Source: a virus
Length of the DNA: 64,000 bases
IMG/VR virus record: IMGVR_UViG_2209111000_000009
Coordinates: 8,867 to 72,866 of that record
Strand: one strand, 5' to 3'
In this document: piece after piece, positions 19,183 through 60,213 of the stretch
Layout of the letters: the number at the start of each line of letters is the position of its first letter
Position numbering within the stretch: position 1 is the first letter of the stretch
Program-made: the position numbers and the translations under genes
Notes under the pieces: model-generated
The model's database searches: none
Told to the model about the DNA's origin: nothing
The model's input: only the letters and a program-made list of their open reading frames with translations

Positions 19183-19355
19183 TGCGGTATTACCTCTACT
19201 CGGTTCCGGGATGTCCGCACCCTCACACTCTGAACACTTCCGAGCATCCCGATAGCGTCCGATCACGCTTCTGTTTCGGCGAGTACAATCTAACCCGTGT
19301 ACCATACGAGGTGTATTTGAATCGATTGCGTGAGAATTTTAAGAGGTTCGGTTAG
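19170..19355 (+). CDS. hypothetical protein (61 aa)
   Basis: Overlaps the nblA end; GGGGAG RBS. Confidence 0.55.
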   Translation: MESLMRYYLYSVPGCPHPHTLNTSEHPDSVRSRFCFGEYNLTRVPYEVYLNRLRENFKRFG

Positions 19356-19393
19356 CACTACTAGGCACCCTTAAGCAAGGTGCTATAGTAGGT
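19349..19393 (+). promoter_or_regulatory. 45-bp repeated early promoter-like element, copy 1
   Basis: CGGTTAGCACTACTAGGCACCCTTAAGCAAGGTGCTATAGTAGGT; contains an extended -10 TGCTATAGT and an imperfect inverted repeat. Confidence 0.8.
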
Positions 19394-19420
19394 TTAACAT
19401 TAACAGAAAAGATACAAACA

Positions 19421-19642
19421 ATGAAAACCACTTCAAACCACCACGGATACCAAGTAAAAATTCATACCACTTCAGAGGACTATCAAACAGACCCAGGCGA
19501 GTATCTTTGGAATAAAGGCAAAATATACAAAACTCGTCCAACCGCCTTAAAAGTAATAGGCAATATAGGTTGTGCGCTAGACGCAGGAAAATTAAACATA
19601 CCGGGATATAGACATTGTGAGATAATAGAGTGGTTCGGTTAA
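19421..19642 (+). CDS. hypothetical protein (73 aa)
   Basis: Single gene between two identical 45-bp elements. Confidence 0.6.
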   Translation: MKTTSNHHGYQVKIHTTSEDYQTDPGEYLWNKGKIYKTRPTALKVIGNIGCALDAGKLNIPGYRHCEIIEWFG

Positions 19643-19658
19643 TACTACCAACCTTGGG

Positions 19659-19703
19659 CGGTTAGCACTACTAGGCACCCTTAAGCAAGGTGCTATAGTA
19701 GGT
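19659..19703 (+). promoter_or_regulatory. 45-bp repeated element, copy 2 (identical to copy 1)
   Basis: Exact repeat 310 bp downstream of copy 1. Confidence 0.8.
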
Positions 19704-19732
19704 ACATACAAACGAAAGAGAGCTAAAACAAA

Positions 19733-20197
19733 GTGAAAAAACTACTACTTACAATCGTCCAAGTCAAAGCACTTCCGACCTCCACCGAATACGACACCGC
19801 CGAACTACAACCCTTAGCTGAATCTAGCCTCGCTCTCGGAGGGTTCATCTACCCACCAGTAGTACGCCGAAGCGCCGAAGGATATGAGATCATCAGCGGA
19901 CACCGTGAAGTCGCTGCTGCCCACCTCGCTCGCATCATTGACCCACGAGGTGGTGAAAATATCCCAGTCATGCTAATCGAAGAAGAAATGGAGGAAACCG
20001 CAGCCGTCCAACTAGAGGCACCCACCGCGCCCGCTAAGGCACCCCAAATCATCTCAACCCCTGAGCCGACCGAAGCTACTCCACTGCCCGAAATTAAGCG
20101 TTACTGCCAAGAGCGGGGCATTACCCCAGACGGTAACAAACGTTACAAATCTACATGGCTGGCAGCCGTCCGGGGTATGGCTATCACTACTAAGTGA
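19733..20197 (+). CDS. ParB/Srx-like N-terminal domain plus C-terminal HeH-like motif
   Basis: PPVVRRSAEGYEIISGHREVAAA..DPRGGE; C-terminal LPEIKRYCQERGITPDGNKRYKSTW. Confidence 0.7.
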   Translation: MKKLLLTIVQVKALPTSTEYDTAELQPLAESSLALGGFIYPPVVRRSAEGYEIISGHREVAAAHLARIIDPRGGENIPVMLIEEEMEETAAVQLEAPTAPAKAPQIISTPEPTEATPLPEIKRYCQERGITPDGNKRYKSTWLAAVRGMAITTK

Positions 20198-20372
20198 GGG
20201 CGGTTAACCTTACCACACACCATTCGCGATGGAGGTACAGTAGATGTACCCACTCTGACCAAATTATATAGGTACGGTTACTACTACCTTTTGTGTACGG
20301 TTTTCTCTACTATACAACCAAATTGGGGAGTGTTATTCTATAAATATAGAAACGAACAAAGGAAGTAAAACG

Positions 20373-20708
20373 ATGCACCACTCACTAATTTCAACCGCAC
20401 TCCTCGCCCTTCAAGCCGAAGGAAGCCTGAACTTCAGAACTAAGCTAAAAACAATACCGACCGGATTTCATAAGACTGTAGAAACCGATGAATACCTTCA
20501 TCCGATGGGAAAATACCGCCACACTTTCTATATGGATAGCAAATCACCGACGGGTTATTCGGTACTGGTAGAAGCTACTCACGAACTCCCCGCTCTCCCT
20601 CTTGTTGACCGCCACATCGAATCCTTCGAGGATTTTGAGGAGGAGTATGACAAATACTACGCGGTAGAAGCTACCAAAGCCACCCGCCGACGCCAGCTAG
20701 GTAAATAG
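20373..20708 (+). CDS. hypothetical protein (111 aa)
   Basis: ORF with AGGA upstream. Confidence 0.6.
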   Translation: MHHSLISTALLALQAEGSLNFRTKLKTIPTGFHKTVETDEYLHPMGKYRHTFYMDSKSPTGYSVLVEATHELPALPLVDRHIESFEDFEEEYDKYYAVEATKATRRRQLGK

Positions 20709-20727
20709 CCCACCGGGGCGGGAGGTA

Positions 20728-20772
20728 CGGTTTACTCTACTAAGCACCCTTAAGCAAGGTGCTATAGTAGGT
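20728..20772 (+). promoter_or_regulatory. 45-bp repeated element, copy 3
   Basis: 4 mismatches to copy 1. Confidence 0.8.
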
Positions 20773-20797
20773 TTAACAACCGAGAGAAAAAAAAAAT

Positions 20798-20998
20798 ATG
20801 AAACCCTTTAGCCGACTGACCCGCTACGAAATGAGTAAGATGACCTTAAGAGAGATTGCAGATAGTCAAATCTACGAGATTAACCCAGAACACTTTAAGA
20901 ATTCTTTGGAGTCAACAGCCCCACAGAAGCTTACACCAGGTCACACCTTTGGTACCCCTAGACCGTGGCGACCACTAAAAAAGAGCAAAAGACGTTAA
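20798..20998 (+). CDS. hypothetical protein (66 aa)
   Basis: Follows the repeated element and an A10 run. Confidence 0.55.
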   Translation: MKPFSRLTRYEMSKMTLREIADSQIYEINPEHFKNSLESTAPQKLTPGHTFGTPRPWRPLKKSKRR

Positions 20999-21107
20999 AC
21001 ATCCCGTTTGTACGGTTATCACTATTTACATAGTTCGGTTTACCCTACTACCTAATTATCGCGACGGTGTTATAGTAAACATATACAAGCGATAAAAAAA
21101 AAAAAAA

Positions 21108-21392
21108 ATGTTAAAGACCACACTAACACCCGAAAAAGTCAACACTTTATTAAATCAATTAACTCATATACCTTACCGAGTGGCACTGATACCATCTAAA
21201 GGTAAGTACAACCTAATGAAGGGTACACGACCGGACTACCAAGGCTCTCTCCATCACTGCTTAAAGTACGCTCAAGGTCAAATAGAAATTTTCAACTACT
21301 ATGAGGAAGTTAGAGCTATAGAGAAACTACACTTATTTTGCTATCTACCTCACGTAACCTACCGTACTGAGAGGTCTTACCCGCCAGGTTAA
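21108..21392 (+). CDS. hypothetical protein (94 aa)
   Basis: Follows TGTTATAGT and 14 A immediately before the ATG. Confidence 0.55.
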   Translation: MLKTTLTPEKVNTLLNQLTHIPYRVALIPSKGKYNLMKGTRPDYQGSLHHCLKYAQGQIEIFNYYEEVRAIEKLHLFCYLPHVTYRTERSYPPG

Positions 21393-21450
21393 CTAATTTA
21401 TATATATAGATTTTACTATAGCACCTTATGCGGGTGCTATTGCCGTTTAT

Positions 21451-21465
21451 GGGTATATTAGGGTA
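21451..21465 (+). promoter_or_regulatory. putative late promoter GGGTATATTAGGGTA
   Basis: Identical 15-mer at 27806; sits at the head of the tail operon. Confidence 0.6.
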
Positions 21466-21839
21466 TGGAAGACTCACTAGAGGACTTAATTCGCGAACAG
21501 TGCCGCCCGTTAGCCATCAACCCCCGCATAGAGGTCGAATGGAACGGTAGCTCTTTCACGCGCTCAAACACGTCTAACCTTGAGGCAAAGATACTAGGCA
21601 TCTACAACGTGAGTTTTACACTGTTGTGCAAAACCCGTGATCGTAGGTCGGTGTTTAAGCTAGGACTAAAGGTGCGCGACGCTGTTAACGGGTTACGTCC
21701 TGAGTCGGTTAGCCCTCTAATACCTGCCTTATGCTGCACTAATATGTCTTATACGGGCATAGATGGTGATGAGTTGCACGGGGTCAGTATTACGGTTAAC
21801 ACTCAATTCCCTTATATAAAGGAGCAAACTAAATGTTAA
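21465..21839 (+). CDS. putative tail terminator / tail completion protein
   Basis: Size (124 aa) and position directly before the tail tube gene; position-based call. Confidence 0.45.
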   Translation: MEDSLEDLIREQCRPLAINPRIEVEWNGSSFTRSNTSNLEAKILGIYNVSFTLLCKTRDRRSVFKLGLKVRDAVNGLRPESVSPLIPALCCTNMSYTGIDGDELHGVSITVNTQFPYIKEQTKC

Positions 21840-22576
21840 GTGGAGTGGGCAACTTATGCCTGTTATCTCTTGACTACGGCGATGATAACTTCGCCTTTCC
21901 TCAAGCTTTCGTGGATTTCAACATTAACTCGGATGTTAGTTCCAAAGAAGCCCGAGGCTGGGTTAACGGCAAAAAGCAGGTGCTAGCCTCAGCGATCGAC
22001 AGTGAGAGCTATACCCTTACGTTGGCGATGGAATTCGTCAACTGGCAAATTCTTGCTTGGGCTTTTGACCAACGTCCCCAAAAAGTTACCAATGCGGTAT
22101 TGCCCTATACCAAGTCGGCTATTGCCAATAATAGTGGCGTAGTGACTGACCCGCAGATTAAAGCAGGTACTAAGTTATTTGCCTATGTAGCGGCTAAGGG
22201 GCCTTGGGGGAATGCTCGCCCGTTAAAGAAAACTGAGGTTACTGTATCAGCAGGATCATTTAGTGTTGGTGCTGGTTTTGCTGCGGCTCCTATCACCTAT
22301 CACTTTACTGACACGGTGGCAGAGATTGACTCGATCGGCGCGGTAACAGGCGCTCAAAAGTTTGGCAAGCTAGGGTTTTCCGGTTTGGGCTACGGGCCAG
22401 AGTTCCCTAACGGCATTCTGATTGTAGTACCTGAAATTACTCGTAAGAGTTCGCCGAGCTTTGAGACGGGCGATGTCCCGAAGTTCAGTGTGGAATACGG
22501 GATTAACATTCCGCAAGGCTCTGATTCGCCTTTCCGTTTCTATGACATGAGCAGTATACCACCAGCGGCGGCATAA
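21833..22576 (+). CDS. major tail (tube) protein
   Basis: 247 aa, beta-rich composition, SESYTLTLAME-type segment; position. Confidence 0.6.
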   Translation: MLSGVGNLCLLSLDYGDDNFAFPQAFVDFNINSDVSSKEARGWVNGKKQVLASAIDSESYTLTLAMEFVNWQILAWAFDQRPQKVTNAVLPYTKSAIANNSGVVTDPQIKAGTKLFAYVAAKGPWGNARPLKKTEVTVSAGSFSVGAGFAAAPITYHFTDTVAEIDSIGAVTGAQKFGKLGFSGLGYGPEFPNGILIVVPEITRKSSPSFETGDVPKFSVEYGINIPQGSDSPFRFYDMSSIPPAAA

Positions 22577-22577
22577 T

Positions 22578-23399
22578 ATGGATTATCTGGGACAGTCGGG
22601 GGAAAAAGCGTTAGTTAATGACCGGGGGCGGATACTCCGGTTGCCTTTTGCTGGCGACGGTCAGCCCCCGGAACCCGGAACCCGGATTAACCCTAAGCGA
22701 GATAGCTGCTGTTGTCCTAAAAGTGTAGATTTGATGTCTAAGCAAGAAGACCATAAAAGATCTGACCCTCGCAGAACTTCGGATAAAAATAAAAACGGTA
22801 ATTTAGTCTTTATGGGGATAGATAGCCCTGTTGACCGAGATCTTTGGGTTTCTGAGTTTAAGGGGCATAAAATAAAGCTTCTACTATACCCTCTTGACAC
22901 TATCATTACCCCTCTCCCTACTTATTGGCTCTACTTTGATATCGACAAAAATAAAGTCAATATTGTAGATGTAATGACAAAAGCTACAACCATTTACTTG
23001 TATAGCCGTCGCACTTTTGGGAGTTTAGGTAATCACGACAATAATCTTAATGAAAAAAATGAATTAAAAAGTATAATAAGAAAGTTTTATCAGCCTCAGG
23101 AATATGACCAAATACTTGATAAATTAACTAGATCTCACCCTAGACCTAGAAGTATAAGAATACATTTTAAAGTATTTGATATATGGGACAATTTGATTGC
23201 TGTTGAGCATGATATTAATAAAGAAAAAAAATGGGTAAAGAAATTTAAAGAAATACACCCAAATACTAGGTTATCAAAATATAACCATTATGTAAAAAGT
23301 ATTAACGGAAAAGGAGATGGAAATGGTGTTTTAGAGCCGCTTAAAGATTGGTACAAAAAGCCTGAAGATAAGAGATATAAATATGTCCGCATATATTAA
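22578..23399 (+). CDS. hypothetical protein with AT-rich, K/N-rich C-terminal part
   Basis: Open 273-aa frame with an abrupt compositional shift after about 22780. Confidence 0.55.
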   Translation: MDYLGQSGEKALVNDRGRILRLPFAGDGQPPEPGTRINPKRDSCCCPKSVDLMSKQEDHKRSDPRRTSDKNKNGNLVFMGIDSPVDRDLWVSEFKGHKIKLLLYPLDTIITPLPTYWLYFDIDKNKVNIVDVMTKATTIYLYSRRTFGSLGNHDNNLNEKNELKSIIRKFYQPQEYDQILDKLTRSHPRPRSIRIHFKVFDIWDNLIAVEHDINKEKKWVKKFKEIHPNTRLSKYNHYVKSINGKGDGNGVLEPLKDWYKKPEDKRYKYVRIY

Positions 23400-23916
23400 C
23401 ATCCCCCTCACTAACGGGCGTTGGCTAACTTTGCAGCGCTTACCCGTATTTGCACGGCTTGATTTCTCCTACCACATTAAAGCCGCCTATGAACTTCTAG
23501 CAAAGGATAAACAACAAGACATCAGGGAGTTTTATGTCCGTAATAGTGAGTTTAGGCACCATTGCAATATAGCTCTCGAATTACATCACATACCCCCAGA
23601 CCATATATCAGATGACCAATTTATAGCTTTGCTGTTTGGATCTCCTAAATTTCCCTTTGGAGTCCTTAACCAGTTTAATTTCGATATCACCGAAGCTACC
23701 AAAAACGCTAAGGCACCAGGGAAGGAGACTAAGGGGTCATTGCTGGGGAAACTCTTTAAAGCTACTGGAGACGTATCGGTAGCCCTTAAAATGGCTCAAG
23801 AGCTACCTGTTGATGTTCTAGAGGACTTGTTCGCTGAGATGAAGCCTCAAGATACCAAGGACAAAGAGAAAGCCAGACGAGCTTTATTACAGTATCAAGC
23901 GCATGGAGAAGGCTAA
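23383..23916 (+). CDS. putative tail assembly chaperone
   Basis: Helical 177-aa protein after the tail tube gene; position-based call. Confidence 0.4.
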   Translation: MSAYINIPLTNGRWLTLQRLPVFARLDFSYHIKAAYELLAKDKQQDIREFYVRNSEFRHHCNIALELHHIPPDHISDDQFIALLFGSPKFPFGVLNQFNFDITEATKNAKAPGKETKGSLLGKLFKATGDVSVALKMAQELPVDVLEDLFAEMKPQDTKDKEKARRALLQYQAHGEG

Positions 23917-27764: not shown

Positions 27765-27805
27765 ATCACTTAATATAAGACTCTCTCACTAAGAGTACCC
27801 CCGCT

Positions 27806-46688: not shown

Positions 46689-46904
46689 TTAATCCTCTAA
46701 AAGGTCATCTAGTGAGTCGTCGTACTCGTCACCTTTCTTTTGGTTAGGGGGTACCGGGTCAGGCTCTACAAACCCTTGCTCTTGCATAAACTCAGTAGTG
46801 GACTGACCCTCTGTTTGGGTAGCTAAGATTTTAGACCCGCCTCCGGGTTGTACTTGGCTGACTTGGAGTTTGCCCGTGCGTTTGTTAGCCGATAGCTTGG
46901 TCAT
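46689..46904 (-). CDS. hypothetical protein (71 aa) with acidic tail
   Basis: GGAG RBS; hairpin downstream at about 46662-46682. Confidence 0.6.
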   Translation of the reverse strand: MTKLSANKRTGKLQVSQVQPGGGSKILATQTEGQSTTEFMQEQGFVEPDPVPPNQKKGDEYDDSLDDLLED

Positions 46905-46965
46905 AGTGGTTGTCTCCGTTAATTTGGTTCTAGTGTAACACCTTTGCTATGATCGGTAAGTACGG

Positions 46966-47259
46966 CTAACCGTACTGAATCATTGACTCTTTAGCAACCG
47001 TTTCTACAGGGCAACCATTGCTAATCATTTTAATCACTCTTGCCTCGTGATTATCAATTAGCCTTTGAAAGGATTCTATCGCGTCTTCTTTCTCGCGGTA
47101 CGTCTCACGCCACCGAATGAAGCTATCAGAGGGCAAGTGGTATATCTTGTTTACGAACTTATTCCCCTCTCGCTCTAAAACTAAGTAGTTATCAGTAGTC
47201 AGCATCTTTTCAAGCCGAAATAGATTGCCAGTTGTCATTAATGCGTTGATTGTCTGCAT
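46966..47259 (-). CDS. hypothetical protein (97 aa)
   Basis: GAGG RBS; degenerate early element at about 47284-47322. Confidence 0.6.
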   Translation of the reverse strand: MQTINALMTTGNLFRLEKMLTTDNYLVLEREGNKFVNKIYHLPSDSFIRWRETYREKEDAIESFQRLIDNHEARVIKMISNGCPVETVAKESMIQYG

Positions 47260-47332
47260 AGTGCCTCGTTATGGTGGTTGGTCTTACTATAACACCTTTG
47301 CAAAGGAGCTTAGTTATGTACCTGACAGTTTA

Positions 47333-47527
47333 CTAACGGTTATTCCTTTTTGAATTGTACCTCTGAGTTTGTGCGTACCAGGCTTTAGATACCTCGGTAG
47401 GTGTCCAACAATCATCAGGTTTTGCACCCGTCATTTCTATTGCCTCATCTGCGGTCATTTCTTCACCACAGACAGTTTGAATTTTTTCCCAGCCACTTAC
47501 ACGAATTTCCCAGTATCTTACAGCCAT
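47333..47527 (-). CDS. hypothetical protein (64 aa)
   Basis: GAGGT RBS. Confidence 0.6.
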   Translation of the reverse strand: MAVRYWEIRVSGWEKIQTVCGEEMTADEAIEMTGAKPDDCWTPTEVSKAWYAQTQRYNSKRNNR

Positions 47528-47541
47528 CTTTACCTCATTAT

Positions 47542-48018
47542 TTAAGATTTTACAATGTCTATTTTTTTCTTTTTGCCTGTTTCCGGGTTAGTATAAATTT
47601 CCCATCCTAGGGGGTACTGGCGACTCACATCTGTTGATTTTAGGGGGAAATGACAAGCACTTGTTAGTTTTCTAGCTTCCTGGCTATAGTATAGCCTAAA
47701 CAATTTTGACCTTTCAGCAGGTGTGTAATCTGACAGAATGCCAAAGTGATCACGTATTTTCAGTTTACGGATTTCGTGATGTATAGTGCCGAAACAAACA
47801 TAACCGGACTTTCTTGTGATAACCTCTATGTCTTCAATTAACTCCTCAATAGTAGCGTTTTCCCAGTCTATTATTCGCCAGCTAAGGTTTATAGCGGTTA
47901 AAGGTATTGAAGAACTAGAGACATAATAAACTGGTTTTCCCTCGAAAATCCGCTTTGTTACTTCTAGATGAGCGTAATAAGAATCATTAACCAGTAATCG
48001 GTAGGTATTTACAATCAT
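47542..48018 (-). CDS. hypothetical protein (158 aa)
   Basis: GAGGG RBS; follows the 45-bp element. Confidence 0.6.
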   Translation of the reverse strand: MIVNTYRLLVNDSYYAHLEVTKRIFEGKPVYYVSSSSIPLTAINLSWRIIDWENATIEELIEDIEVITRKSGYVCFGTIHHEIRKLKIRDHFGILSDYTPAERSKLFRLYYSQEARKLTSACHFPLKSTDVSRQYPLGWEIYTNPETGKKKKIDIVKS

Positions 48019-48037
48019 GACTTCCCTCAGTTGTTAA

Positions 48038-48082
48038 ACCTACTATAGCACCTTGCCAAAGGGTGCCTAGTAGTGCTAACCG
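48038..48082 (-). promoter_or_regulatory. 45-bp repeated element, copy 4
   Basis: 2 mismatches to copy 1; inverted orientation. Confidence 0.8.
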
Positions 48083-48088: not shown

Positions 48089-50527
48089 TTAGGTGTGGTT
48101 AACCGCCCAAGTGCTAACCCCTTTAAGGTCAGCAGGTAATAATTTGTACCCTTGTGGAGGTTCCACCGTGTTAGAGGGGGTGAGGCAAGAGGCTGTGACC
48201 TCTTTACGGCATACGGTGTCGATGTTAACATCCTCAAACCACATACCAATCGTCGGCATCTGATACAGCCCTAGCGCCTCGTGTAGCGCTGCCCAAGTAA
48301 AGGCGTGGGCTTGTTGAATTAACTCGGTAGCCATCTCTACCTCGTGGTCAGGGGCAACTATCATAACCTCATCATGGCGCGTCCAAGCAATAAAAGCGCT
48401 TAGTCTAAAGTGCTTACACAGGTAGGCAAAACCCGTGCAGAGCAGATCTAAACCGTCCCGAGCCGTGGCTTGAATGATAAAATTGTTTCTGGTTGTGGCA
48501 TAATCACGCCCTACATAGAGGGGCATCAAAGGGTCTGGCATCTCACGCCGTAGCAAAGGGGTGCGAGGGCGATCACTGTTGGCAATAGCTGCGATCGCGT
48601 TAACAGCGTCACTGTCAGTGCCACCGACATATATCCGCTCATCATTCACGTATTGTCCCGTACCTCGCTTAAAGGTTATAGCCTCTCGTGCAATTGCTTC
48701 TGCTTCACTAGGGGTTAAGTGAGGGCAATTAAGCCTAATCGTGTTACTAACCGAAGGTACACCCGCACCATATTGCATGGCGTAGACGATGTTTTTACTC
48801 GTATCACGGTTGATAGGTGAGCCAGCCTTGGCGGTCAGATTAGCACTGAGCATAGAATGCCCATCAGTGCCTTTTGATTTGTCACCTGCAATGCCCGCTC
48901 TGCTCATAGGTGTCCCGCCTACTTTACCTACTCTCCCGTCGCCCAGAGTCCACGCAATACGCAATTCTTGGCTTGAGAAGTCGGCTATCACTAGCTTATG
49001 CCCAGGTGGTGCCTGTATTCGGCTTTTAAGCTCAGAACCGATACGCCCCGGTTTACTACCCTTGGGTGGCTTAGGGTCACAAGTAGTAAGCCAAAGTGGT
49101 TCGGTCACGCGCCCCGTAACAGTGCCGCCACCTGTTAGAGGTACTACCCACCCATCTTGAACCCTCACGCCTAACGCTCGACTCCTTACCGATGTCCAGT
49201 AGGCCACTGAGTAGGCCAAGTCTACCAGTTTTTGGCATTTAGGGTCGCTTGAGGACAGCACCCCGGACTCGAAAGCGGAGTTAAAGTCTTTGCTGAACAA
49301 GTAGCCTACGTTACCGTTAGACCCTTTAGGGTGAGGTATAGAGCCATCCGTGGTGTAGTAGCCTTGCTTTCGTGACCACATAACAGGCTTGCCCAAGTAG
49401 CGCATTTTGAGCAATATGTGACCCATAACTTGATGGATGGAGAATTCACCGTCACACTTACGATACCATTCAGGGTATCCTTTAAGCTTCCGAGTACGGG
49501 GCTTGACTGTCCAATCTACCATCAGGTGCCAAGGGTCTTTAGGGTCAAAACCTTTGGCTACCCAGTCCTCTGCGATTGCCTTCAGCGCGTCGGCAATCTC
49601 TTGTTGTGCTTTTTCGTACACTCGCTCTGTATTAGCTAACCACTCCTCCCAGTCGGGCGCGATCGGTAAGCGATAACTGTTCGCCACGATCGCGCCCCAG
49701 AGAGACGCCGAATGAGGTGCCTTACCTTTCCAAAGGAACCAGAGTACCTTAAGCACCTTATGGGTAACTCGCACATCTTTAGCACAGTAGGCTAATAAGC
49801 TGCACCATACGGGGTGTAGCTCCTCATAACTGTCAGCTTCTACAAACAGGTTGCGCTCAGTTTTATCCAAGGACTCTCCGAGGTAAAACTCGGCGGTGTC
49901 GCTCAAGCTTTTGTAATTACCTTTACCGAACCCTTTGAGCGCCCAGAAAGGCAAAGTATGCTTAGGTTTGTCAGAGTAGCAGACCCACTGCTGATCTGTA
50001 CAGAATCCGCTAACTTGGGTAGCTAGTACCTGAGTATCTAGTGCCATTACCGGGCCTTGCACCAGTGCCGCATCAAAAGAGACGTTATGCCCGATTATCA
50101 GCGAACCAGGTAAGAGTTTAATATACTCACCTACCTTTGGAGTCTTCCAACAGTACCAAACCCCGTTAGACCCTAAATAGGTAGCCATTACTGGGTAGCC
50201 TTTAAATTTAACCAATGTCTCAGCGTCAAATACACCCACCTTAGTAGGGGGGGTTTCAATAGGTTCGTAAGTACCCATCACCGACCAACCGATCGGTTGA
50301 GATGCCCAGTCAGTAGCAAGGGGTATAACGTACTCACTGATCTTGAGAAGGTCTAGGAGTTCGGTCATAAAAGGGGCGAGTAAAGATTGAGCCATTCGTT
50401 CAAGGCTAGCTAGAACCCCTTCTTTAGCTAGCTGAAGCACAGGTGGTTCTGGGTGCGCGTCAAACTCGGTCGGGCCTTGGTAGGGTTGCCCAAGAAACAG
50501 ACGGTTATGGGTGAACTGTGTGACCAT
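48089..50527 (-). CDS. polA: family A DNA polymerase, mitochondrial Pol-gamma-like
   Basis: Exo motifs FDAET, GHNVSFD, YCAKDV; GTVTGR..EPLWLT; RIGSELK..IQAPPG..ADFSSQELRIA; KNIVYAMQYGAG; HDEV. Confidence 0.92.
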   Translation of the reverse strand: MVTQFTHNRLFLGQPYQGPTEFDAHPEPPVLQLAKEGVLASLERMAQSLLAPFMTELLDLLKISEYVIPLATDWASQPIGWSVMGTYEPIETPPTKVGVFDAETLVKFKGYPVMATYLGSNGVWYCWKTPKVGEYIKLLPGSLIIGHNVSFDAALVQGPVMALDTQVLATQVSGFCTDQQWVCYSDKPKHTLPFWALKGFGKGNYKSLSDTAEFYLGESLDKTERNLFVEADSYEELHPVWCSLLAYCAKDVRVTHKVLKVLWFLWKGKAPHSASLWGAIVANSYRLPIAPDWEEWLANTERVYEKAQQEIADALKAIAEDWVAKGFDPKDPWHLMVDWTVKPRTRKLKGYPEWYRKCDGEFSIHQVMGHILLKMRYLGKPVMWSRKQGYYTTDGSIPHPKGSNGNVGYLFSKDFNSAFESGVLSSSDPKCQKLVDLAYSVAYWTSVRSRALGVRVQDGWVVPLTGGGTVTGRVTEPLWLTTCDPKPPKGSKPGRIGSELKSRIQAPPGHKLVIADFSSQELRIAWTLGDGRVGKVGGTPMSRAGIAGDKSKGTDGHSMLSANLTAKAGSPINRDTSKNIVYAMQYGAGVPSVSNTIRLNCPHLTPSEAEAIAREAITFKRGTGQYVNDERIYVGGTDSDAVNAIAAIANSDRPRTPLLRREMPDPLMPLYVGRDYATTRNNFIIQATARDGLDLLCTGFAYLCKHFRLSAFIAWTRHDEVMIVAPDHEVEMATELIQQAHAFTWAALHEALGLYQMPTIGMWFEDVNIDTVCRKEVTASCLTPSNTVEPPQGYKLLPADLKGVSTWAVNHT

Positions 50528-51088: not shown

Positions 51089-51106
51089 AGTACGGTTAAC
51101 CGTACT
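51089..51106. promoter_or_regulatory. perfect 18-bp palindrome AGTACGGTTAACCGTACT between divergent genes
   Basis: Two back-to-back GTACGGTT half-sites; 1-mismatch copy at 46959-46976. Confidence 0.7.
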
Positions 51107-51125
51107 AGCCACCCTTTGCTAAGGT

Positions 51126-51467
51126 GTGACAGTATATAGGAAATTCACAATAATAGTTATGGAAACTGACACTAACGATTTACTGAGACAAGCAGCGCCT
51201 TACTCTCCAACCCTCAGGGCATATTTAGCCAACCAAAACCCTCTGGTAGTCACATTAATGCTTCGCCCAAAGTCTTTTCGAGGGGTAGACAGTTACTGGG
51301 CATACGGTGAAGATGCCATCAAGGTAGCCAATAACACTGACTTGGTGCTGCATTATATGGAAGTTGAGGGCTTACGGATTCCGTCGGTAAGTGTCCCGCA
51401 CTACGGTGTAGATTTCTACCGCCGAGAACTTACTCGAAAGGGTGTTAATGCTACATGGGTGTGCTAA
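51126..51467 (+). CDS. stand-alone MutS domain I-like protein
   Basis: DSYWAYGEDAIKVA...L.L......IPSVSVPHY....Y..EL..KG parallels MutS-I GDFYELFGEDA...IPMAGVP. Confidence 0.6.
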   Translation: MTVYRKFTIIVMETDTNDLLRQAAPYSPTLRAYLANQNPLVVTLMLRPKSFRGVDSYWAYGEDAIKVANNTDLVLHYMEVEGLRIPSVSVPHYGVDFYRRELTRKGVNATWVC

Positions 51468-51589: not shown

Positions 51590-52000
51590 TCAGGATTCAA
51601 CCCAACGTAGGTAGGCATTAGCGAAGCGCTTCCCGTATTTGCGACTTTCGAGGCAGTTCAAAGCCCACTCCGGTATGCCTCTTAAGTCTGACTCCTCGCC
51701 CCGGGTTATGTTTTCAGAGTCCTCCTCAAGCTCGATCAAGGTAGTCTGCATAGGTGGCTGGTTGCGCGGGGTTTTTATCAAGTTCATCTCATCACGCAGA
51801 CAATGACGCATATAACCCCTAAGAGACTTAATCACGTACACTTTCTTAGCCTTATCTGGGAGGTCTGGGTTAATTCTTGCCAGTAACGCAGGGATGCGAG
51901 GGTGACAATAGCTTACTAAGTCTTGATAATTTAGGCGGTGCTGAGCCGCCAAGTGCGCGGCTGTAATCTTGGTGTAGATAAGGGCTTGTTTAACATCCAT
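51590..52000 (-). CDS. truncated sigma-70-family factor (region 2 only; SigF/SigB-like)
   Basis: YQDL...ARINP....VYVIKSLRGYMRHCLRDEMNLIKTPR resembles sigma 2.1-2.4 (IRG.I.HYLRD....IR.PR); no region 4 HTH. Confidence 0.6.
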   Translation of the reverse strand: MDVKQALIYTKITAAHLAAQHRLNYQDLVSYCHPRIPALLARINPDLPDKAKKVYVIKSLRGYMRHCLRDEMNLIKTPRNQPPMQTTLIELEEDSENITRGEESDLRGIPEWALNCLESRKYGKRFANAYLRWVES

Positions 52001-52002
52001 AA

Positions 52003-52011
52003 GGGTATATT
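52003..52011 (+). promoter_or_regulatory. GGGTATATT box upstream of terminase
   Basis: Same first 9 nt as the late 15-mer. Confidence 0.5.
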
Positions 52012-52041
52012 GTTATAGTTAGTATACCTGTTAATTATATC

Positions 52042-53645: not shown

Positions 53646-54668
53646 CTATGCTTGGTTATGGCTGTCATAAAGATTGTTGACCCGTAGTAGATCCGAGACA
53701 AGGTTTTCGGCGGACGCGATCGCAGTGGGGCTGAGAGGCTTAGGAGCGATAGGCAGCACCACCAGGTATTTATCCCCTATTTCTTTGATAGTTTCCAAAG
53801 CCTCTTCTAGGGTGTCAAACTCCCATCGAAAGTTAGCATCTGTAGTTAGCGCCCAGCCTTCATCAGTGTCACAACCGTCAGCAAGGTATTCAGTGACTAA
53901 CACGCTATATCCGTCTAGATGCGTCTCAGACTCCCGCAGCACCACAAAGGTAGTGCATTCTAAGTAGTGAATGTCATTGACCGTTAAAGCTTCAACCACT
54001 AAGCGTTTATCCGCTTCAGTGGCTTTTAAAGCCTCGTCATAGCTGCCAAATTGACAAGCCTCAAAAATGTCATTTGTTATATAAAATCCCCCTACATCCT
54101 CAACCTTCTTTGCCAAGTATTTACTGTATCCCTCCTCGACCTCTAACCGCACTACAAATTTAGAGGCGTTCTTAAGTAAGGGTGGTAGTTCACCCTTCAC
54201 AGAGTCTTTAGCTATAGGGACTACAACGAGAGTGTCATCAGCCCAACTTCTACCCCCGTAAATGCGTAAGATATCACTTAATACCTCATTAGCGTGTTCA
54301 CGGCTGGTAAAGTTAGCGCGTTCCTCTTGTCTAGTAGTGAGTGACCACCCACCGCCGTCTTTCTTAACCCACTCTACAAAGTGATAGCTTGTTCGGATGA
54401 TACCATAATGGCGGGGCAAGTGTAGCTCGGGTTGGTTTTCACTATCTTGAACCGCAATTAATTCTATTTCAGTTTTATTGTCACAGGGTGAAGTATAAAT
54501 GGCACTCTCTTTAATGAGCCATTTACCTACTAAGAACTTAGAAACTACGGCGTCAACATAATTTGTGTCGTCTATTCGGTAGACAGACATAAAACCTAAG
54601 TAAGCTGGTACTTCTGGGTACAAATCAGTGACGGTACCGATATTTAAAGGCTGTGTAGTTAATTTCAC
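53646..54668 (-). CDS. hypothetical protein with three GW.LT.D....F.S.EEA-type repeats
   Basis: Repeats visible in the translation; follows a degenerate 45-bp element at about 54689-54733. Confidence 0.65.
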   Translation of the reverse strand: MKLTTQPLNIGTVTDLYPEVPAYLGFMSVYRIDDTNYVDAVVSKFLVGKWLIKESAIYTSPCDNKTEIELIAVQDSENQPELHLPRHYGIIRTSYHFVEWVKKDGGGWSLTTRQEERANFTSREHANEVLSDILRIYGGRSWADDTLVVVPIAKDSVKGELPPLLKNASKFVVRLEVEEGYSKYLAKKVEDVGGFYITNDIFEACQFGSYDEALKATEADKRLVVEALTVNDIHYLECTTFVVLRESETHLDGYSVLVTEYLADGCDTDEGWALTTDANFRWEFDTLEEALETIKEIGDKYLVVLPIAPKPLSPTAIASAENLVSDLLRVNNLYDSHNQA

Positions 54669-54750
54669 GGTATTACCTTAAAGGATGTGCCTACTATAGC
54701 ACCTTCGCAATGGTAGGGTAGTAGTGTTAACCCCACCAAGAAAGTAGTGT

Positions 54751-54996
54751 TTACCGTACCGTGTAGCTGGCTACGAAAGCGTCAACAGCGGCGCGCTGCT
54801 TAGGGGTAAGCCTGTCACCGGGGTATACCTCAAAGTCAAAATGGTTGTAACAGTACCCAACTAGCTCAATTCTCGCCCTGTCACCTTGGGTCGGTATACG
54901 GGAAATGATTTCTGAGACAATCTCTTGTATAAAGGTATCTGACCGTTCCGAGTTTCCAACAGGGTTGCTAAAGTAGTCGTCAACATCATAAGCCAT
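54751..54996 (-). CDS. hypothetical protein (81 aa)
   Basis: GAGGGG RBS; degenerate element at about 55018-55055. Confidence 0.6.
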   Translation of the reverse strand: MAYDVDDYFSNPVGNSERSDTFIQEIVSEIISRIPTQGDRARIELVGYCYNHFDFEVYPGDRLTPKQRAAVDAFVASYTVR

Positions 54997-55187
54997 AGCT
55001 ATCCCCTCAAAGGTTTTGCCTACTCTAGCACCTTTCCAAGGGTTGCTAGTAGAGGGTATGACCCATTACAGTCAACAATCTTTGAGCATAGGACTTTGAC
55101 AACTCAACAGGGGTGCAATCGTTTCTAACAAATAGAAAAAAGCGAGCTTTCTTGCCCGCTTTAATGACCTTAATTACAGGCGTCCCT

Positions 55188-55508: not shown

Positions 55509-55728
55509 ATTTCCTCCAAAAGTTAAACCCCCGAAGACGGGGGCGGTTGTTTACCAAACAGCAGGTATGTTGTGCAGAACTACTTTAATACTGAGTGTCA
55601 GCACTTCCCATCTTAACCAATAGATAATCTCGTAATCAGTTGATGATGTACAGTATCGGTAAAAACAGTACAACCAATTCAAAGTCAATACAATTTGCAG
55701 GGAATTCAAAAAAATTTCAAGCATTAGG

Positions 55729-55920: not shown

Positions 55921-55921
55921 C

Positions 55922-56113
55922 TTATTCGACGGGGGTAATGTTAAGGGCAAAGTCTGAGAGTTGGGCGCGAATCGCTTGGGCGCGAGGGCTACTGACAAAC
56001 TCCCAAGCGCGATCGTAATTGTCTACGAGGCACCAAGCCCCGTTTAGGTCTTTGCCTACCCATACCCGCTGCCCTTTCTCAACCTTGGTCAGTACGAAAC
56101 TTTGTTCTATCAT
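55922..56113 (-). CDS. hypothetical protein with one W.L...AWEF repeat-family unit
   Basis: GAWCLVDNYDRAWEFVS. Confidence 0.6.
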   Translation of the reverse strand: MIEQSFVLTKVEKGQRVWVGKDLNGAWCLVDNYDRAWEFVSSPRAQAIRAQLSDFALNITPVE

Positions 56114-56379
56114 TTCAAAAAAACCTGTAATAGTAGTTCAATTTCCGGGGTGGTAAACCAACATGGATTATAATCCTCCGTGTCTATAACTAAAAGCTCG
56201 TTTTGTCTAGCTATCCAAAATCCGTCTCCTCTGGCCCACCCATAAAAAGCTTGATAACCTCTGAACTTTAAGCCGCAAAGTGCTACATACGCTCTATGAT
56301 ATTTAGGTTCAGTAAATTGTTTGTTTCTTAGCTCTTCCTCAAGCTCTTCTATTGTATAAACTTTTTGTTCTGTGTTCAT
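56110..56379 (-). CDS. hypothetical protein (89 aa)
   Basis: ATGA overlap. Confidence 0.6.
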   Translation of the reverse strand: MNTEQKVYTIEELEEELRNKQFTEPKYHRAYVALCGLKFRGYQAFYGWARGDGFWIARQNELLVIDTEDYNPCWFTTPEIELLLQVFLK

Positions 56380-56381
56380 AG

Positions 56382-56570
56382 CTAAATAAATTCAATTTCC
56401 TTTGATTGTACACCGTACCATGAAGCCAGAGTAATTATATTCGCCAGTGTTGCTTGATATCTAATAGGGCCTACAAAGCCGCTAGACCTATCAGAATCAT
56501 TAACGGCGGCAACCACCCAGCAAGGCGGGGAAGCCCCGCTGTCCCAAGCTACTCGGAACCTAATAGCCAT
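56382..56570 (-). CDS. hypothetical protein (62 aa)
   Basis: GGAGG RBS. Confidence 0.55.
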   Translation of the reverse strand: MAIRFRVAWDSGASPPCWVVAAVNDSDRSSGFVGPIRYQATLANIITLASWYGVQSKEIEFI

Positions 56571-56863
56571 GCTGCCTCCTTAATTTGCTCGGGTTGTGCG
56601 TGTCTCACCTTGAAGACCTCTAGGTCTTCCGAAGTAACATTAGACCACAATGCCGAAAACAGAAACGGGTTAACCCTTGTCATTGGTATGTCAAATTTAA
56701 AACCTAGCACCTGTTTTGTGTCTGGACAACTATCAATTAAAGACACGGTACCGTCATCATACAGGCTGACCATTCGGCGTACACCAAAATGCTCGGGGAA
56801 GTCAAACCACTTGTGCGCTATCGGTAACGGTGGTGACTCGTTGCTATCAAATTCTGTTGTCAT
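56549..56863 (-). CDS. hypothetical protein (104 aa)
   Basis: ATGA overlap. Confidence 0.55.
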   Translation of the reverse strand: MTTEFDSNESPPLPIAHKWFDFPEHFGVRRMVSLYDDGTVSLIDSCPDTKQVLGFKFDIPMTRVNPFLFSALWSNVTSEDLEVFKVRHAQPEQIKEAAWLLGSE

Positions 56864-57180
56864 ATTACCACTATTGCGTTAAGGACTTGAGTAGAAATGC
56901 GATCACTTGGGCTGAAGTGTCCTTTTTCCAAAATACGAACAAATTCTCGGTTGTATTGATTCACAAAGTTGTCAAACCCTAGGTAAGCTGCCTCGTGACT
57001 GGGGTAGTAAGCAGCGGGGACAGAATAGTCTCCCTCTGAATCAAACAACTCTAGGCTAAAATAATCCCCTCTATGGGATAATAAAAAGTATCTCGGTCTG
57101 CCTGCTACATTACAAGCTAACTTTTCAAGTTTCCTTACGGCTCCCGAGTCAATTAGCGCATTAAACTGTTCACGATTCAT
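56860..57180 (-). CDS. hypothetical protein (106 aa)
   Basis: GGAGG RBS before MNREQF. Confidence 0.55.
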   Translation of the reverse strand: MNREQFNALIDSGAVRKLEKLACNVAGRPRYFLLSHRGDYFSLELFDSEGDYSVPAAYYPSHEAAYLGFDNFVNQYNREFVRILEKGHFSPSDRISTQVLNAIVVI

Positions 57181-57361
57181 TAGTGCTGTCCTCCGCTGGG
57201 TTGTCAATCACGATAGATGTCCGGGGTTCGTAGTCAACCCTTTCAAGGTAGTCTTGCAGTTGTGCTACTTGCTCAGGCGTTAGGTGAAACTCAAAGAAGG
57301 CACTACCGTCAGAATTTAGCTGCATTTCAAAATTATCACGGTCAACAGGTATTTTGTGCAT
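57170..57361 (-). CDS. hypothetical protein (63 aa)
   Basis: TAATG coupling; shares LT.EQ.A.L..YLE with 57584..57847. Confidence 0.55.
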   Translation of the reverse strand: MHKIPVDRDNFEMQLNSDGSAFFEFHLTPEQVAQLQDYLERVDYEPRTSIVIDNPAEDSTNES

Positions 57362-57603
57362 TACTTGCCCCACAAGTTGTTAAAGGTTTGCTCAAAAAGT
57401 TTTACGGCGCTATCCCACTTTACAACCTCACATAGTATAGTTTCTGAACCAAGAGGGTCAAAAATTACGATGTGTCCAACATCCGAAAAAAATGTGGCTT
57501 TGTATAAAACGAGATAGCTACTTTCATCTAGCTTTCTCATGCACTCAATATTACCACATTTGAGAGAGTAAACCAGTTGCTCATTAGTTTGAAGCATTAA
57601 CAC
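57361..57603 (-). CDS. hypothetical protein (80 aa)
   Basis: GGAGGT RBS. Confidence 0.55.
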   Translation of the reverse strand: MLMLQTNEQLVYSLKCGNIECMRKLDESSYLVLYKATFFSDVGHIVIFDPLGSETILCEVVKWDSAVKLFEQTFNNLWGK

Positions 57604-57847
57604 TGACCTCCGGCTTGCCCGTCAAAATGTACGATATGGCGGCGGGGCTAACCCCCTCAAGATGCTCTCGCAGTTTAGCAGCTTGTTCAGCAGTTAAGGT
57701 TACATCTGCCACTTGGTAACCGTTAACTTCATAGTACACCCCGATTTGATCAGGTAAAATCTCAATTATGGTGCCTTTACCTGAATAACTAGGGAATTCT
57801 ACGTCATTGTCTTTCGGTTTAATCCAATCTTGATTAATTTCTTTCAC
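57584..57847 (-). CDS. hypothetical protein (87 aa)
   Basis: GTG start at 57847 after GGAGG. Confidence 0.5.
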   Translation of the reverse strand: MKEINQDWIKPKDNDVEFPSYSGKGTIIEILPDQIGVYYEVNGYQVADVTLTAEQAAKLREHLEGVSPAAISYILTGKPEVSVNASN

Positions 57848-58442
57848 TAACTGCTGCCTCCTTAACCGCGTGATGTACCGCCTTCTGTGCCATATCGCGC
57901 AAGCTTCCGTCAAATCCCCTGAATGTATCTATTGCCCTAGCTTTTATTGCTGCCCGGAATTCTAAAGGGATAGCAGGGTGGTAGCTCTCGACAAGTAGAC
58001 TGATGTAGTCACCCGCAAGGACGCTAGCTTTGTGCTTAGGGGGTACATATTTAATATCTTTTGCATCCACAGGGTCATAAGTCAAATGAACTTTGTGTGT
58101 AGGGGCGAAATTTTTGGCTTGCTCTCCTAACGCACGGATAGACTGGTTAAGGCAGTCAAACGGGTTTACAGGCTTTGATACATCTTGGCACTGTATTGGT
58201 GTGCCTATCGCCCCTAGCCCGTTTAACACGTCCTTAAGCGGTTCCACCTTAATCAGCTTGTAGGTGCAAGCTTTGTCACCCTCAACCCTCGTAAAGCAGT
58301 TAGTATTGTGAGTAGTTGGCACCGTGCGGTATACCGTTGAAAGGCTAACCCCTAGTATTTCTGATATGTGCTTGCGGGACACGCCTTCGCGGTGCAGGCG
58401 TTTAACATTTTCAATTGTTTCTCGGTCTAGTTTGCTGCTCAT
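57834..58442 (-). CDS. HTH DNA-binding protein with shared C-terminal motif
   Basis: VKRLHREGVSRKHISEILGVSLSTVYR (HTH). Confidence 0.7.
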   Translation of the reverse strand: MSSKLDRETIENVKRLHREGVSRKHISEILGVSLSTVYRTVPTTHNTNCFTRVEGDKACTYKLIKVEPLKDVLNGLGAIGTPIQCQDVSKPVNPFDCLNQSIRALGEQAKNFAPTHKVHLTYDPVDAKDIKYVPPKHKASVLAGDYISLLVESYHPAIPLEFRAAIKARAIDTFRGFDGSLRDMAQKAVHHAVKEAAVSERN

Positions 58443-58526
58443 GGTTTTCTAAGGTATTTAGTCAATTGTAGCACTTTTGTGTCAAAACGTCAGTAGATGT
58501 GAATAATTACCGACGTTTTGACACAT

Positions 58527-58982
58527 TTAGCCCGCGTTAAAGCTTGACATCACTACTGTGCCGGGTTGCAAGTGGTCATAAGCAATGCCTATTTCTTCAA
58601 CAGCTATAAGATGCGCTTGCTCTTTTGATACCCAAGAGCGGTCATACCTCCATCTCTCCCCAGTACCATAACGGGGGTGTATTAGGCGGGCTTCTTCTTC
58701 AGAGAGCGCCACGACTATGCAAGAGTCAAAGGTGTCATAACCTTTGTACTCGCCTTGACTGAGTTTGTAAAACTTTGCTTTTGCTTGTCGGGGTAAGGGT
58801 AGACCCTCTGTAGGTTCAATGTGATAGATACCTGGTTTACCGTCAATAGCTTCCCAAGCTTCTTCAACAGTATCAAACTCATAACGCTGGTTAATGTCCT
58901 CTGTATATAACCACCAACCTAAGTCTGTTTCAGACAACCATTCAACACGTTCTGGGATAATTTGCTTGATTACAAAACTCAT
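58527..58982 (-). CDS. hypothetical protein with one W.L.T.D...YEF repeat-family unit
   Basis: GWWLYTEDINQRYEFDTVEEA; GGAG RBS after an A13 run. Confidence 0.6.
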   Translation of the reverse strand: MSFVIKQIIPERVEWLSETDLGWWLYTEDINQRYEFDTVEEAWEAIDGKPGIYHIEPTEGLPLPRQAKAKFYKLSQGEYKGYDTFDSCIVVALSEEEARLIHPRYGTGERWRYDRSWVSKEQAHLIAVEEIGIAYDHLQPGTVVMSSFNAG

Positions 58983-59014
58983 AGCTCTCCTTTTTTTTTT
59001 TTTACTTTCGTACC

Positions 59015-59416
59015 TTAAGGCCAGGTTAAGCAGTCTGGGTGTGGCAACCTTTCGCCGTTGCTGTCGCGGGGGCAGTGCATATCAATGACAAAGAAGTGCT
59101 TAGTCGCTTCGCCCCAGTACAGCTTGCCAATTTTGCCACCTTTAGTGAGCCGCCAAGACACATCACCGCTTTTAGCAGTCTTAGGCAAGTTAAGAGTGTA
59201 GCCTAGGGGTAGAAGCCAAGCTACAATCGCCCTAAACTCTTCCCACCGTTGGTCATTGCCCCAGCTATCATCAGGTAGTAAGCCGTAACAGTCCTCGATA
59301 GTGACTTGCACCGCTCTTTTGTACTCCTCAAGCATATCAATCAGTTGATTGACTTCTTTAACTGGCGCACCCTTGGCAAGGTAGGTGTCCACAATGTCTA
59401 AAATGTGTCTGGTCAT
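59015..59416 (-). CDS. hypothetical protein (133 aa)
   Basis: GGAG RBS. Confidence 0.6.
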   Translation of the reverse strand: MTRHILDIVDTYLAKGAPVKEVNQLIDMLEEYKRAVQVTIEDCYGLLPDDSWGNDQRWEEFRAIVAWLLPLGYTLNLPKTAKSGDVSWRLTKGGKIGKLYWGEATKHFFVIDMHCPRDSNGERLPHPDCLTWP

Positions 59417-59447
59417 TTATAGCGCTCCTTAAATTGTTGTGGCTTTT

Positions 59448-59828
59448 TTATCCCCTATGAGAGAGCATTAGGTCAATGCCTCTTGCTAACTGAAATTTAC
59501 TCAAAGACAAAAGGGTTTGATTAGCTATCAATAAACCCCTGTACCCTATAAACACAGCCCGACAACAAAGGTATTCAGGGTCTTGTACAGAGACAAATTG
59601 AGGCTCACTAGAGAGGCATTCACTATCTTTTAGATAGCCTACTATCTCGGGTTTTTTGTTGTCAAAATAGCGATGTACTTCGACTAAAGTCCTAAACCGG
59701 GAATCCCAGAAAGGTTGTTGAGCAAGTTTTTTATACTGCTTCCCTTGCACCACATACTCAAAACCTCCTACCCTAATGTGACGAAACTCACAACCGTCTA
59801 GCATTAATCTATTTGACGTGTTTTTCAT
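59448..59828 (-). CDS. hypothetical protein (126 aa)
   Basis: Start immediately after the upstream stop. Confidence 0.55.
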   Translation of the reverse strand: MKNTSNRLMLDGCEFRHIRVGGFEYVVQGKQYKKLAQQPFWDSRFRTLVEVHRYFDNKKPEIVGYLKDSECLSSEPQFVSVQDPEYLCCRAVFIGYRGLLIANQTLLSLSKFQLARGIDLMLSHRG

Positions 59829-60140
59829 TTAAAACCCTAATTTGAGTGATAGTGCGATCGCACCTCCGACAGCCCGAATATTTAAAGGTTTAACGGGGCG
59901 AGCTTGCCAGTAGGATAAAGTAGCCTTAACGTCTGTCGCAGCCTTGCTCACGGCGCGTTTAACAACCGTTGCAACGACTTTAAGCAAGCGAGCTACCTCG
60001 TCGGCTATTGCCCGTGCTGAGGAGTTGAGCTTAACCAGAACTTCAATACCTTGTGAGCGCAGTAACTTGAGTGTAGCGATTTGAGACTTACGATCGGCGG
60101 TGCGGGCGGTGTTAAGAAAGGCGATTTGCTGAGTGTTCAT
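59829..60140 (-). CDS. hypothetical basic, Ala-rich protein (103 aa)
   Basis: First gene after 45-bp element copy 5. Confidence 0.6.
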   Translation of the reverse strand: MNTQQIAFLNTARTADRKSQIATLKLLRSQGIEVLVKLNSSARAIADEVARLLKVVATVVKRAVSKAATDVKATLSYWQARPVKPLNIRAVGGAIALSLKLGF

Positions 60141-60168
60141 AAGTTTAAGGTGTGTTTGACTTGTATGT

Positions 60169-60213
60169 GCCTACTATAGCACCTTTGCTAAGGGTGCCTA
60201 GTAGAGAGAACCG
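60169..60213 (-). promoter_or_regulatory. 45-bp repeated element, copy 5
   Basis: CTACTAGGCACCCTT....AAGGTGCTATAGTAGG conserved; 7 mismatches to copy 1. Confidence 0.75.

Follow-up and report, generated by a model that had tools for sequence, protein, structure and literature searches.

Background

Promoter-early stem-loops (PeSLs) have been described in the T4-type phages RB49/phi1, PST/T4 and nt-1/KVP40 (PMC2839356, PMC4122927). A PeSL combines an early promoter with a stem-loop, begins at the stop codon of the upstream gene and separates orphan genes; PeSLs mark the ends of insertions and deletions (indels) between related phages and give rise to mini-circles. The stem-loop may be placed over the promoter boxes or between them, and the crossovers of the mini-circles have been located in the interval from the -10 to the ATG (PMC2839356; extended in PMC4122927). 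PeSLs were also sought in the cyanophage S-PM2 and were judged unlikely there (PMC4503421), and in the literature we found no comparable module described for cyanophages. Here we analyse a palindromic, promoter-like element that recurs between the genes of an uncultured phage, represented by the IMG/VR record IMGVR_UViG_2209111000_000009 (76,986 bp, rated complete). The stretch under study, hereafter called the window, comprises bases 8867-72866 of this record (64,000 nucleotides), and all coordinates refer to it unless another sequence is named.

Judged from sequence and gene context, the ~27 copies of this element probably serve both as promoter modules for accessory genes and as seams of gene gain and loss. 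Because the same sequence recurs before many small accessory genes, the copies constitute patches of homology.

A repeat family in front of small genes

The initial annotation had listed five near-identical copies of a 45-bp element, and all five are present, at 19349-19392 (+), 19659-19702 (+), 20728-20771 (+), 48039-48082 (-) and 60170-60213 (-), with 0, 0, 4, 2 and 6 mismatches, respectively, to the first copy. The eleven degenerate copies that it placed near 7.9, 14.9, 15.2, 15.8, 17.0, 18.2, 21.05, 46.9, 47.3, 54.7 and 55.0 kb were all recovered by a position weight matrix, by nhmmer or by eye, and further copies were found at 7.96-8.0 (+), 20.2 (+) and 51.1 kb (+) and at nine sites outside the window. 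A family profile built on 24 aligned copies matched the genome at 29 places (threshold E<1e-3), two of them within genes (17666 and 32461) and 27 intergenic, 20 of the latter falling inside the window. Most copies had been said to point toward the downstream genes; all 27 intergenic profile matches are in fact co-oriented with the gene that follows. A degenerate pattern of the core was found 20 times in the window, compared to 0.01 matches expected from shuffled sequences.

The intergenic copies front small genes at 7.9-8.0, 14.9-21.1, 46.9-48.1, 51.1, 54.7-55.1 and 60.2 kb and at both genome ends, and most of the genes flanked by them have no family assignment. None of the 27 lies in the structural block or in the 37.5-46.9 kb portion of the replication block. 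At 19421-19642 (+), a 73-aa gene is placed between two cores that are identical over 45 nt, the identity ending abruptly on each side, with a repeat unit of 310 bp. The first of these cores (52.6 bits) has the consensus structure of a CGGTTA box, the dyad and TGCTATAGT, and the second, its exact repeat, has an upstream box at 19636-19648 and precedes ORF 19733-20197.

Viral, metagenome and genome collections were scanned for exact patterns of the dyad without a match; the box pattern gave 35 single matches, which was judged to be chance level given the size of the collection. No copy was found in the nearest cultured cyanophages, Mic1, A-HIS1, S-TIM5 and S-CBWM1, nor in the polymerase relatives at 42-46% identity. 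A 55-kb metagenome contig (L042) of a distant relative, with a polymerase of 44% identity, has repeated intergenic dyads of its own, at 5260-5485, 7075-7125, 11105-11350 and 14255-14665, with CTACTAG / CTAGTAG arms and a different centre, GGGG...CCCC. One of them is located directly behind the polymerase gene of that contig, and some end in T runs, like terminators.

Anatomy of the module and promoter features

Information content along the aligned copies peaks in five blocks spaced ~9-10 bp apart, CGGTT, TACTA, CC.TT, A.GGT and TAGTA. The imperfect inverted repeat that the initial annotation saw over the promoter is present as a 32-bp dyad, TACTAG.CACCCTT-N4-AAGGTG..TAGTA, upstream of which lie one or two GTACGGTTA-N4-CTAC boxes (consensus gTACGGTTA-N4-CTAC), the second of them, in many modules, exactly 23 nt farther upstream. 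At two places the box is a perfect 16-bp palindrome, GTACGGTTAACCGTAC. CGGTTA is enriched in the genome (88 occurrences vs 39 expected); the counts for TACTAG and CTAG showed nothing unusual. The stop codon of the upstream gene often falls inside a box (TAA or TAG of CGGTTAA/G), and the leaders 3' of the core are of two types, GGTTTAACA and GG(C/T)ACATAC. As the upstream boxes and the conserved leaders belong to it, the conserved unit extends to ~100 bp; the 45-bp element as first delimited thus holds for the core and not for the full unit.

The proposal that the element is a promoter is supported by several one-sided features. On the top strand, the hexamer TAnnnT is found in the gene-proximal arm of the dyad in 23 of the 24 copies and, at the mirrored place in the distal arm, in one of 24; the copy at 51093-51136 (+) is the sole aligned one without it. 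Copies that do not contain TATAGT carry TAGTAT two bases on, and the hexamer therefore persists in either of two registers. In 15/24 copies it has TGn in front, a purine is found 7 nt past it in 23/24, and the distance from hexamer to start codon is 22-37 nt in 22 of the 24 genomic copies; the intragenic look-alikes at 5648, 17657 and 32440 are without the hexamer. This combination of a one-sided -10-type hexamer, frequent TGn and start purine, and a fixed start-codon distance argues for a promoter, with an extended -10 (TGCTATAGT) and a weak or absent -35, as had been described. A consensus promoter scan returned TAGGCA-16-TATAGT with TG, the weak -35 agreeing at 4 of 6 positions, and the region upstream of the core contains the G+C-containing boxes and is not AT-rich.

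No T7-type polymerase was found in the genome with PF00940, a family that the control likewise found nowhere, and Sigma70_r2 had no match anywhere in the genome. Except for a giant, tape-measure-like ORF, the genome has no ORF of the right size and without assigned function that could be a candidate for a large polymerase, and ORF 51590-52000 (-) gave no Pfam or PHROG match. The host polymerase is therefore the likely reader, and the element would be a host-type extended -10 promoter inside the 32-bp dyad. A T7/SP6/Syn5-like promoter, to which CTATAG and GGCACCC presumably bear a resemblance, was rejected, as no gene for a matching polymerase was found and the element exceeds the length of such promoters. 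The sites of NtcA, LexA, CIRCE and Pho boxes were also considered and misfit in spacing or in the second half-site.

Predicted intergenic promoters of the canonical sigma-70-like type, with TG, are located at 51990-52041 (TTAACA-18-TGTTATAGT), before the terminase gene, at 61391-61430 (TTGGTA-17-TGATATAAT) and, in L048, at ~4660-4699 (-) (TTGCTA-17-TGCTATAAT). These predicted promoters are a second promoter class beside the modules.

The dyad as a proposed binding site

Across the 24 copies, pairing in the dyad amounts to 75.0% vs 75.3% in shuffled sequences, and in the symmetric register to 63.6% vs 63.9%; compensatory changes are no commoner than in shuffles. Folding energies span the range between -22 kcal/mol, reached by copy 18226 (z -5), and -4 kcal/mol; for the consensus copies they are ~-15 kcal/mol (z -2 to -3), whereas copies 16972 (z +1.2), 15160 (z -0.3) and 46926 (z +0.2) do no better than shuffles. 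No T run follows the stem, some modules are preceded by a separate canonical terminator-like hairpin, and no Rfam family matches the element at gathering score. Given the lack of compensatory changes and the uneven folding, we do not take the dyad for a selected hairpin. Its half-sites are conserved in sequence and lie on one helix face, which suggests a protein-binding site. Counted from the predicted start (+1), the box centres fall at about -42.5 and -65.5 and that of the dyad at about -21.5; the box at about -42.5 would fit an activator and the dyad position a repressor. The clearest helix-turn-helix protein of the phage is encoded by ORF 57834-58442, the other clear one being a homing endonuclease.

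Cassette turnover in a relative

Turnover of the genes between copies was examined in a single relative fragment, the 1,165-bp metagenome contig L046, which encodes the last 155 residues of the polymerase with 97% amino-acid identity, the DNA being ~90% identical up to and including copy 48039. In the window, the near-consensus module at 48039-48082 (-; 58.1 bits) is located directly past the stop codon of the DNA polymerase gene, and its upstream box, at 48093-48105, lies within the end of the coding sequence, so that the polymerase gene reads through the box. The homology to L046 spans this box and the copy itself, which is kept in L046, ends directly past TATAGTAGG and restarts at ~46920, in the leader of ORF 46689-46904, with 87% identity, the 1.1 kb between copies 48039 and 46929 being missing. 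The missing segment (46921-48038, -) holds two cassettes and the degenerate copy at 46929-46972 (-), which precedes ORF 46689-46904 and bounds the segment. One cassette consists of ORFs 47542-48018 and 47333-47527 (-), the other of ORF 46966-47259 (-) with its own module at ~47283-47316.

This is one clear case of what the initial annotation had proposed to look for among relatives, namely indels ending at the element. Two of the cassette genes, ORF 47542-48018 (ORF158) and ORF 19421-19642 (ORF73), found only themselves among 5.8 billion protein clusters, whereas the polymerase does have relatives there. Together, the L046 indel and the unique cassette genes support the suggestion that cassettes may be gained and lost by recombination. 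The modules themselves are mosaic: the core at 19659 is 100% identical to that at 19349, but for its upstream flank and its leader the best counterpart is copy 60170 on the opposite strand (60% and 67%, respectively). No tyrosine or serine recombinase (PF00589, PF00239) was found in the genome, and since no site-specific recombinase is present, general homologous exchange over 45-100 bp of identity would be the simplest mechanism.

Proposed function and alternative explanations

According to the reading that we favour, each copy would be a portable regulatory module of ~45 to 100 bp, whose transcription, regulator, timing during infection and mode of recombination are all predicted. Its core would be read by the host sigma-70-type RNA polymerase through the extended -10 (TGnTAnnnT), with a -35 that is at best weak (TAGNCA, 16-bp spacer). 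Transcription would start at the purine 7 nt past the hexamer, so that the leader up to the start codon would measure 15-30 nt. The -10 hexamer would be embedded in the right arm of the 32-bp dyad; dyad and boxes would bind a dimeric regulator of phage or host origin, by which the ~27 promoters would be switched together. Recombination between copies would then delete, insert or swap the intervening genes.

Several observations weigh against this reading. The arms of the dyad (TACTA, TAGTA) match the conservation profile better than a -10 hexamer of the textbook type does, only 17/25 copies have the A at -11 of the TATAGT register, and the -35 is poor, with an invariant A and C at -37/-36 outside it. 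A few canonical sigma-70-like promoters occur elsewhere in the genome. As to turnover, the junction bases of L046 match neither window copy exactly, and therefore a simple exchange between the present 48039 and 46929 sequences is not demonstrated and the event may be a gain or a loss; the absence of the cassette genes from the closest relatives comes from a word-based search of contigs that may be incomplete.

Since canonical sigma-70-like promoters are present, the modules could be a later, activator-dependent class. They would then be middle-class promoters at which unmodified host polymerase is insufficient and a phage activator, a sigma-like factor or a sigma appropriator is needed at the boxes or at the TACTAG arm; in an extreme form, an unrecognised phage polymerase would read the modules. 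The lack of a good -35 and the strongly conserved -37/-36 bases and ~9-10-bp-spaced blocks speak for this, and the box near -42.5 is in the usual place of a class II activator. The canonical promoters could moreover drive the true early genes, and many phage proteins are without family assignment. However, it is established that an extended -10 promoter may dispense with a -35, neither a polymerase nor a sigma domain was found in the genome, and the clear helix-turn-helix proteins are limited to ORF 57834-58442 and the homing endonuclease. The NtcA site of cyanobacteria is GTA-N8-TAC, which the GTA-N10-TAC of the box does not fit. We regard a middle-class function as rather unlikely. An improbable explanation is that the dyad functions as a hairpin, in RNA or in single-stranded DNA, be it as an insulating terminator or attenuator of the PeSL kind, as a processing site or as a 5' stabiliser of a long read-through transcript. 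The stable folding of the consensus copies and of 18226, the position between co-directional genes, which suits insulation, and the similar L042 dyads that precede T runs agree with it; the lack of compensatory changes, of a T run and of an Rfam match does not, several copies fold like shuffles, separate canonical terminator hairpins precede some modules, and the one-sided TAnnnT is left unexplained.

That same one-sidedness bears on the view that the copies are operators only, repressor sites spread over the genome as stoperators are in cluster A mycobacteriophages, and do not themselves include a promoter. Dyad-symmetric, sequence-conserved half-sites in ~27 oriented copies would be expected of operators, but an operator has no need of a one-sided -10, a TGn, a start purine or a fixed start-codon distance, and several copies head operons in divergent intergenic regions that must hold a promoter, which makes this view very improbable. 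We give least credence to the copies being sites of site-specific cassette recombination like integron attC, an idea that is hardly tenable even though single genes lie between imperfect palindromes and one indel has copies at its ends: the genome has no tyrosine or serine recombinase, it is sequence and not structure that is conserved, the opposite of attC, and the copies, with their promoter features, are found in front of genes.

The reading of the copies as promoter modules and seams can be extended. If one dimeric regulator acted at both the dyad and the GTACGGTTA boxes, the accessory set would form a single switchable regulon whose promoters are at the same time seams between orphan genes, a PeSL-type system outside the T4-like phages; we offer this extension tentatively and consider it possible rather than probable. 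If true, the promoter architecture of the regulon would be one not described for cyanobacteria. The favoured reading would itself provide a non-T4-like case of repeated regulatory modules as seams of phage genome mosaicism, which would explain the rapid turnover of orphan genes beside stable core genes. To our knowledge, almost nothing is known about how promoters are controlled in cyanophages that are neither of the T4 nor of the T7 type, for which the module offers a concrete consensus. It further serves as a marker of accessory genes and of transcription units in a phage lineage that has not been cultured, and the dyad with its boxes could be used as bait for the regulator.

Further copies in the window

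At 7.9-8.0 kb, two modules lie back to back, one at 7903-7946 (-) before ORF 6728-7873 and its divergent partner at 7960-8001 (+; E 2e-4) before ORF 8024-8212. The degenerate module at 14870-14905 (-) precedes ORF 14377-14862, whose listed start codon comes only ~10 nt after the hexamer. A rightward row then follows, with degenerate modules at 15154-15197 (+) before ORF 15198-15527, at 15782-15825 (+), where the next listed gene is ~200 nt downstream, at 16966-17009 (+), without a stable hairpin, before ORF 17043-17300 and a C5 methylase gene, and at 18220-18263 (+), which has the most stable dyad (-22 kcal/mol), before ORF 18288-19013. Beyond the two identical cores, the degenerate module at 20201-20244 (+) has downstream of it two boxes that lack a dyad (20275-20287 and 20298-20310) and then ORF 20373-20708. 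The stretch 20268-20372, with these two GTACGGTT boxes 23 nt apart and then the AT-rich TATTCTATAAATATAG, may represent a different promoter type that uses the same boxes. The near-consensus module at 20728-20771 (+) precedes ORF 20798-20998, and the last module of the row, at 21036-21079 (+), precedes ORF 21108-21392, after which come the structural genes.

The module at 51093-51136 (+), before ORF 51126/51159-51467, has the perfectly palindromic box GTACGGTTAACCGTAC. A long leftward row of small genes, from 60140 to ~53.2 kb, is headed by the near-consensus module at 60170-60213 (-), with an upstream box at 60224-60236. Modules on the same strand are located at 55019-55052 (E 6e-7; centre one nt shorter), before ORF 54751-54996, and at 54690-54733, before ORF 53646-54668 and with an upstream box at 54744-54756.

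The phage and its genes

The source is probably a cyanophage; the nearest cultured relatives of its head protein and polymerase are cyanophages, at 30-39% identity. Genes of a tailed phage, for a head protease, an HK97-type major head protein, a portal and a tail fibre, are found at 21.5-37 kb (+), and a replication block at 37.5-50.5 kb (-) encodes a gamma-type family A DNA polymerase, a DUF5906 primase-helicase-like protein, ribonucleotide reductase, thymidylate synthase and thymidylate kinase. A 5'-3' exonuclease is encoded at 13624-14301, the coding fraction of the genome is 90%, and Rfam families in the window are limited to two tRNAs. The 19-23 kb region of the window matched no deposited phage, protein queries with the polymerase and a methylase against the viral collection gave no closer relative, and the genome collection yielded only a match at 26%; among protein clusters, relatives of the polymerase were found at 93, 73 and 66% identity, encoded on contigs of 70.7, 2.9 and 57.9 kb, respectively.

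Some other genes may be mentioned. A homing-endonuclease-type gene with NUMOD4, HNH_3 and a C-terminal HTH_7 is located at 62808-63368 (-). Three loci (3-932, 1254-1817 and 17297-18103, all +) encode methylases, two of them C5 cytosine methylases and the third a possible N6-adenine methylase; one of the C5 methylase genes is part of an operon headed by a module. ORF 62090-62455 (+) gave a weak, sub-cut-off match to the Acb2/Tad1 hairpin domain (E 3.6e-4, 21 bits), an anti-defence sponge family. For the ORF of 1743 aa at 8417-13648 (-), Pfam, PHROG and PDB gave no match; the proteins closest to it by language model are tape measure proteins, and we take this as a lead only. The product of cassette ORF 19733-20197 (+) has a ParB N-terminal domain at 25.1 bits, slightly below the 26.3-bit cut-off, and in Microcystis phage Mic1 a ParB gene and a DUF4417 gene adjoin the gamma-type polymerase gene, a hint of a common neighbourhood.

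Comparison with known systems

Single-subunit (T7/SP6/Syn5-type) and N4-type promoters go with a matching polymerase gene, and none was found in this genome, the PF00940 control being empty as well. With extended -10/class II promoters, for example those of the NtcA type, the element shares TGnTAnnnT or TAnnnT without a usable -35 and a palindrome ~42 bp upstream of the predicted start; unlike in NtcA-type promoters, the box is GTA-N10-TAC and a second dyad covers -37 to -6. The stoperators and start-associated sequences of mycobacteriophages (clusters A and K) are 13-17-bp repressor or translation-associated sites. Like the present element, they occur as dozens of oriented copies of a short motif near gene starts and are tied to genome-wide regulation; unlike it, they are not full promoter modules, and we know of no established role for them as recombination seams. 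Integron attC cassettes and lambdoid morons resemble the present cassettes in that single genes move with flanking regulatory or recombination sequence. Unlike integron cassettes, those of the phage have no integrase in the genome, where neither a tyrosine recombinase nor sites conserved in structure were found, and lambdoid morons, unlike the present modules, are independent of conserved flanking repeats (morons discussed in PMC2839356).

Among known systems the PeSL comes closest, and the element can be seen as a variant of it. The likeness to PeSLs that had been suggested holds for how the element seems to work, as judged by position, promoter content and one indel, and not for membership. 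Unlike the PeSL phages, the present phage is not T4-type, and its module has neither an AT-rich upstream region nor a good -35 (4 of 6 positions), the -10 and TGn of a sigma-70-like promoter being well supported. The dyad differs from a GC-rich terminator stem and is not preserved structurally; the lack of covariation, the uneven stability and the absence of a T run argue against a terminator or attenuator stem-loop, and the tandem GTACGGTTA-N4-CTAC boxes have no counterpart in PeSLs. As in PeSLs, a composite module of ~50-100 bp is repeated between small, mostly orphan genes of unknown function (27 co-oriented intergenic copies) and starts at the stop codon of the upstream gene, and a predicted host-type promoter is combined with an inverted repeat between or over the promoter boxes. 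In one case, that of the single relative fragment L046, a difference in gene content ends at modules, and the homology breaks just past the hexamer, much as the PeSL crossovers fall between the -10 and the ATG.

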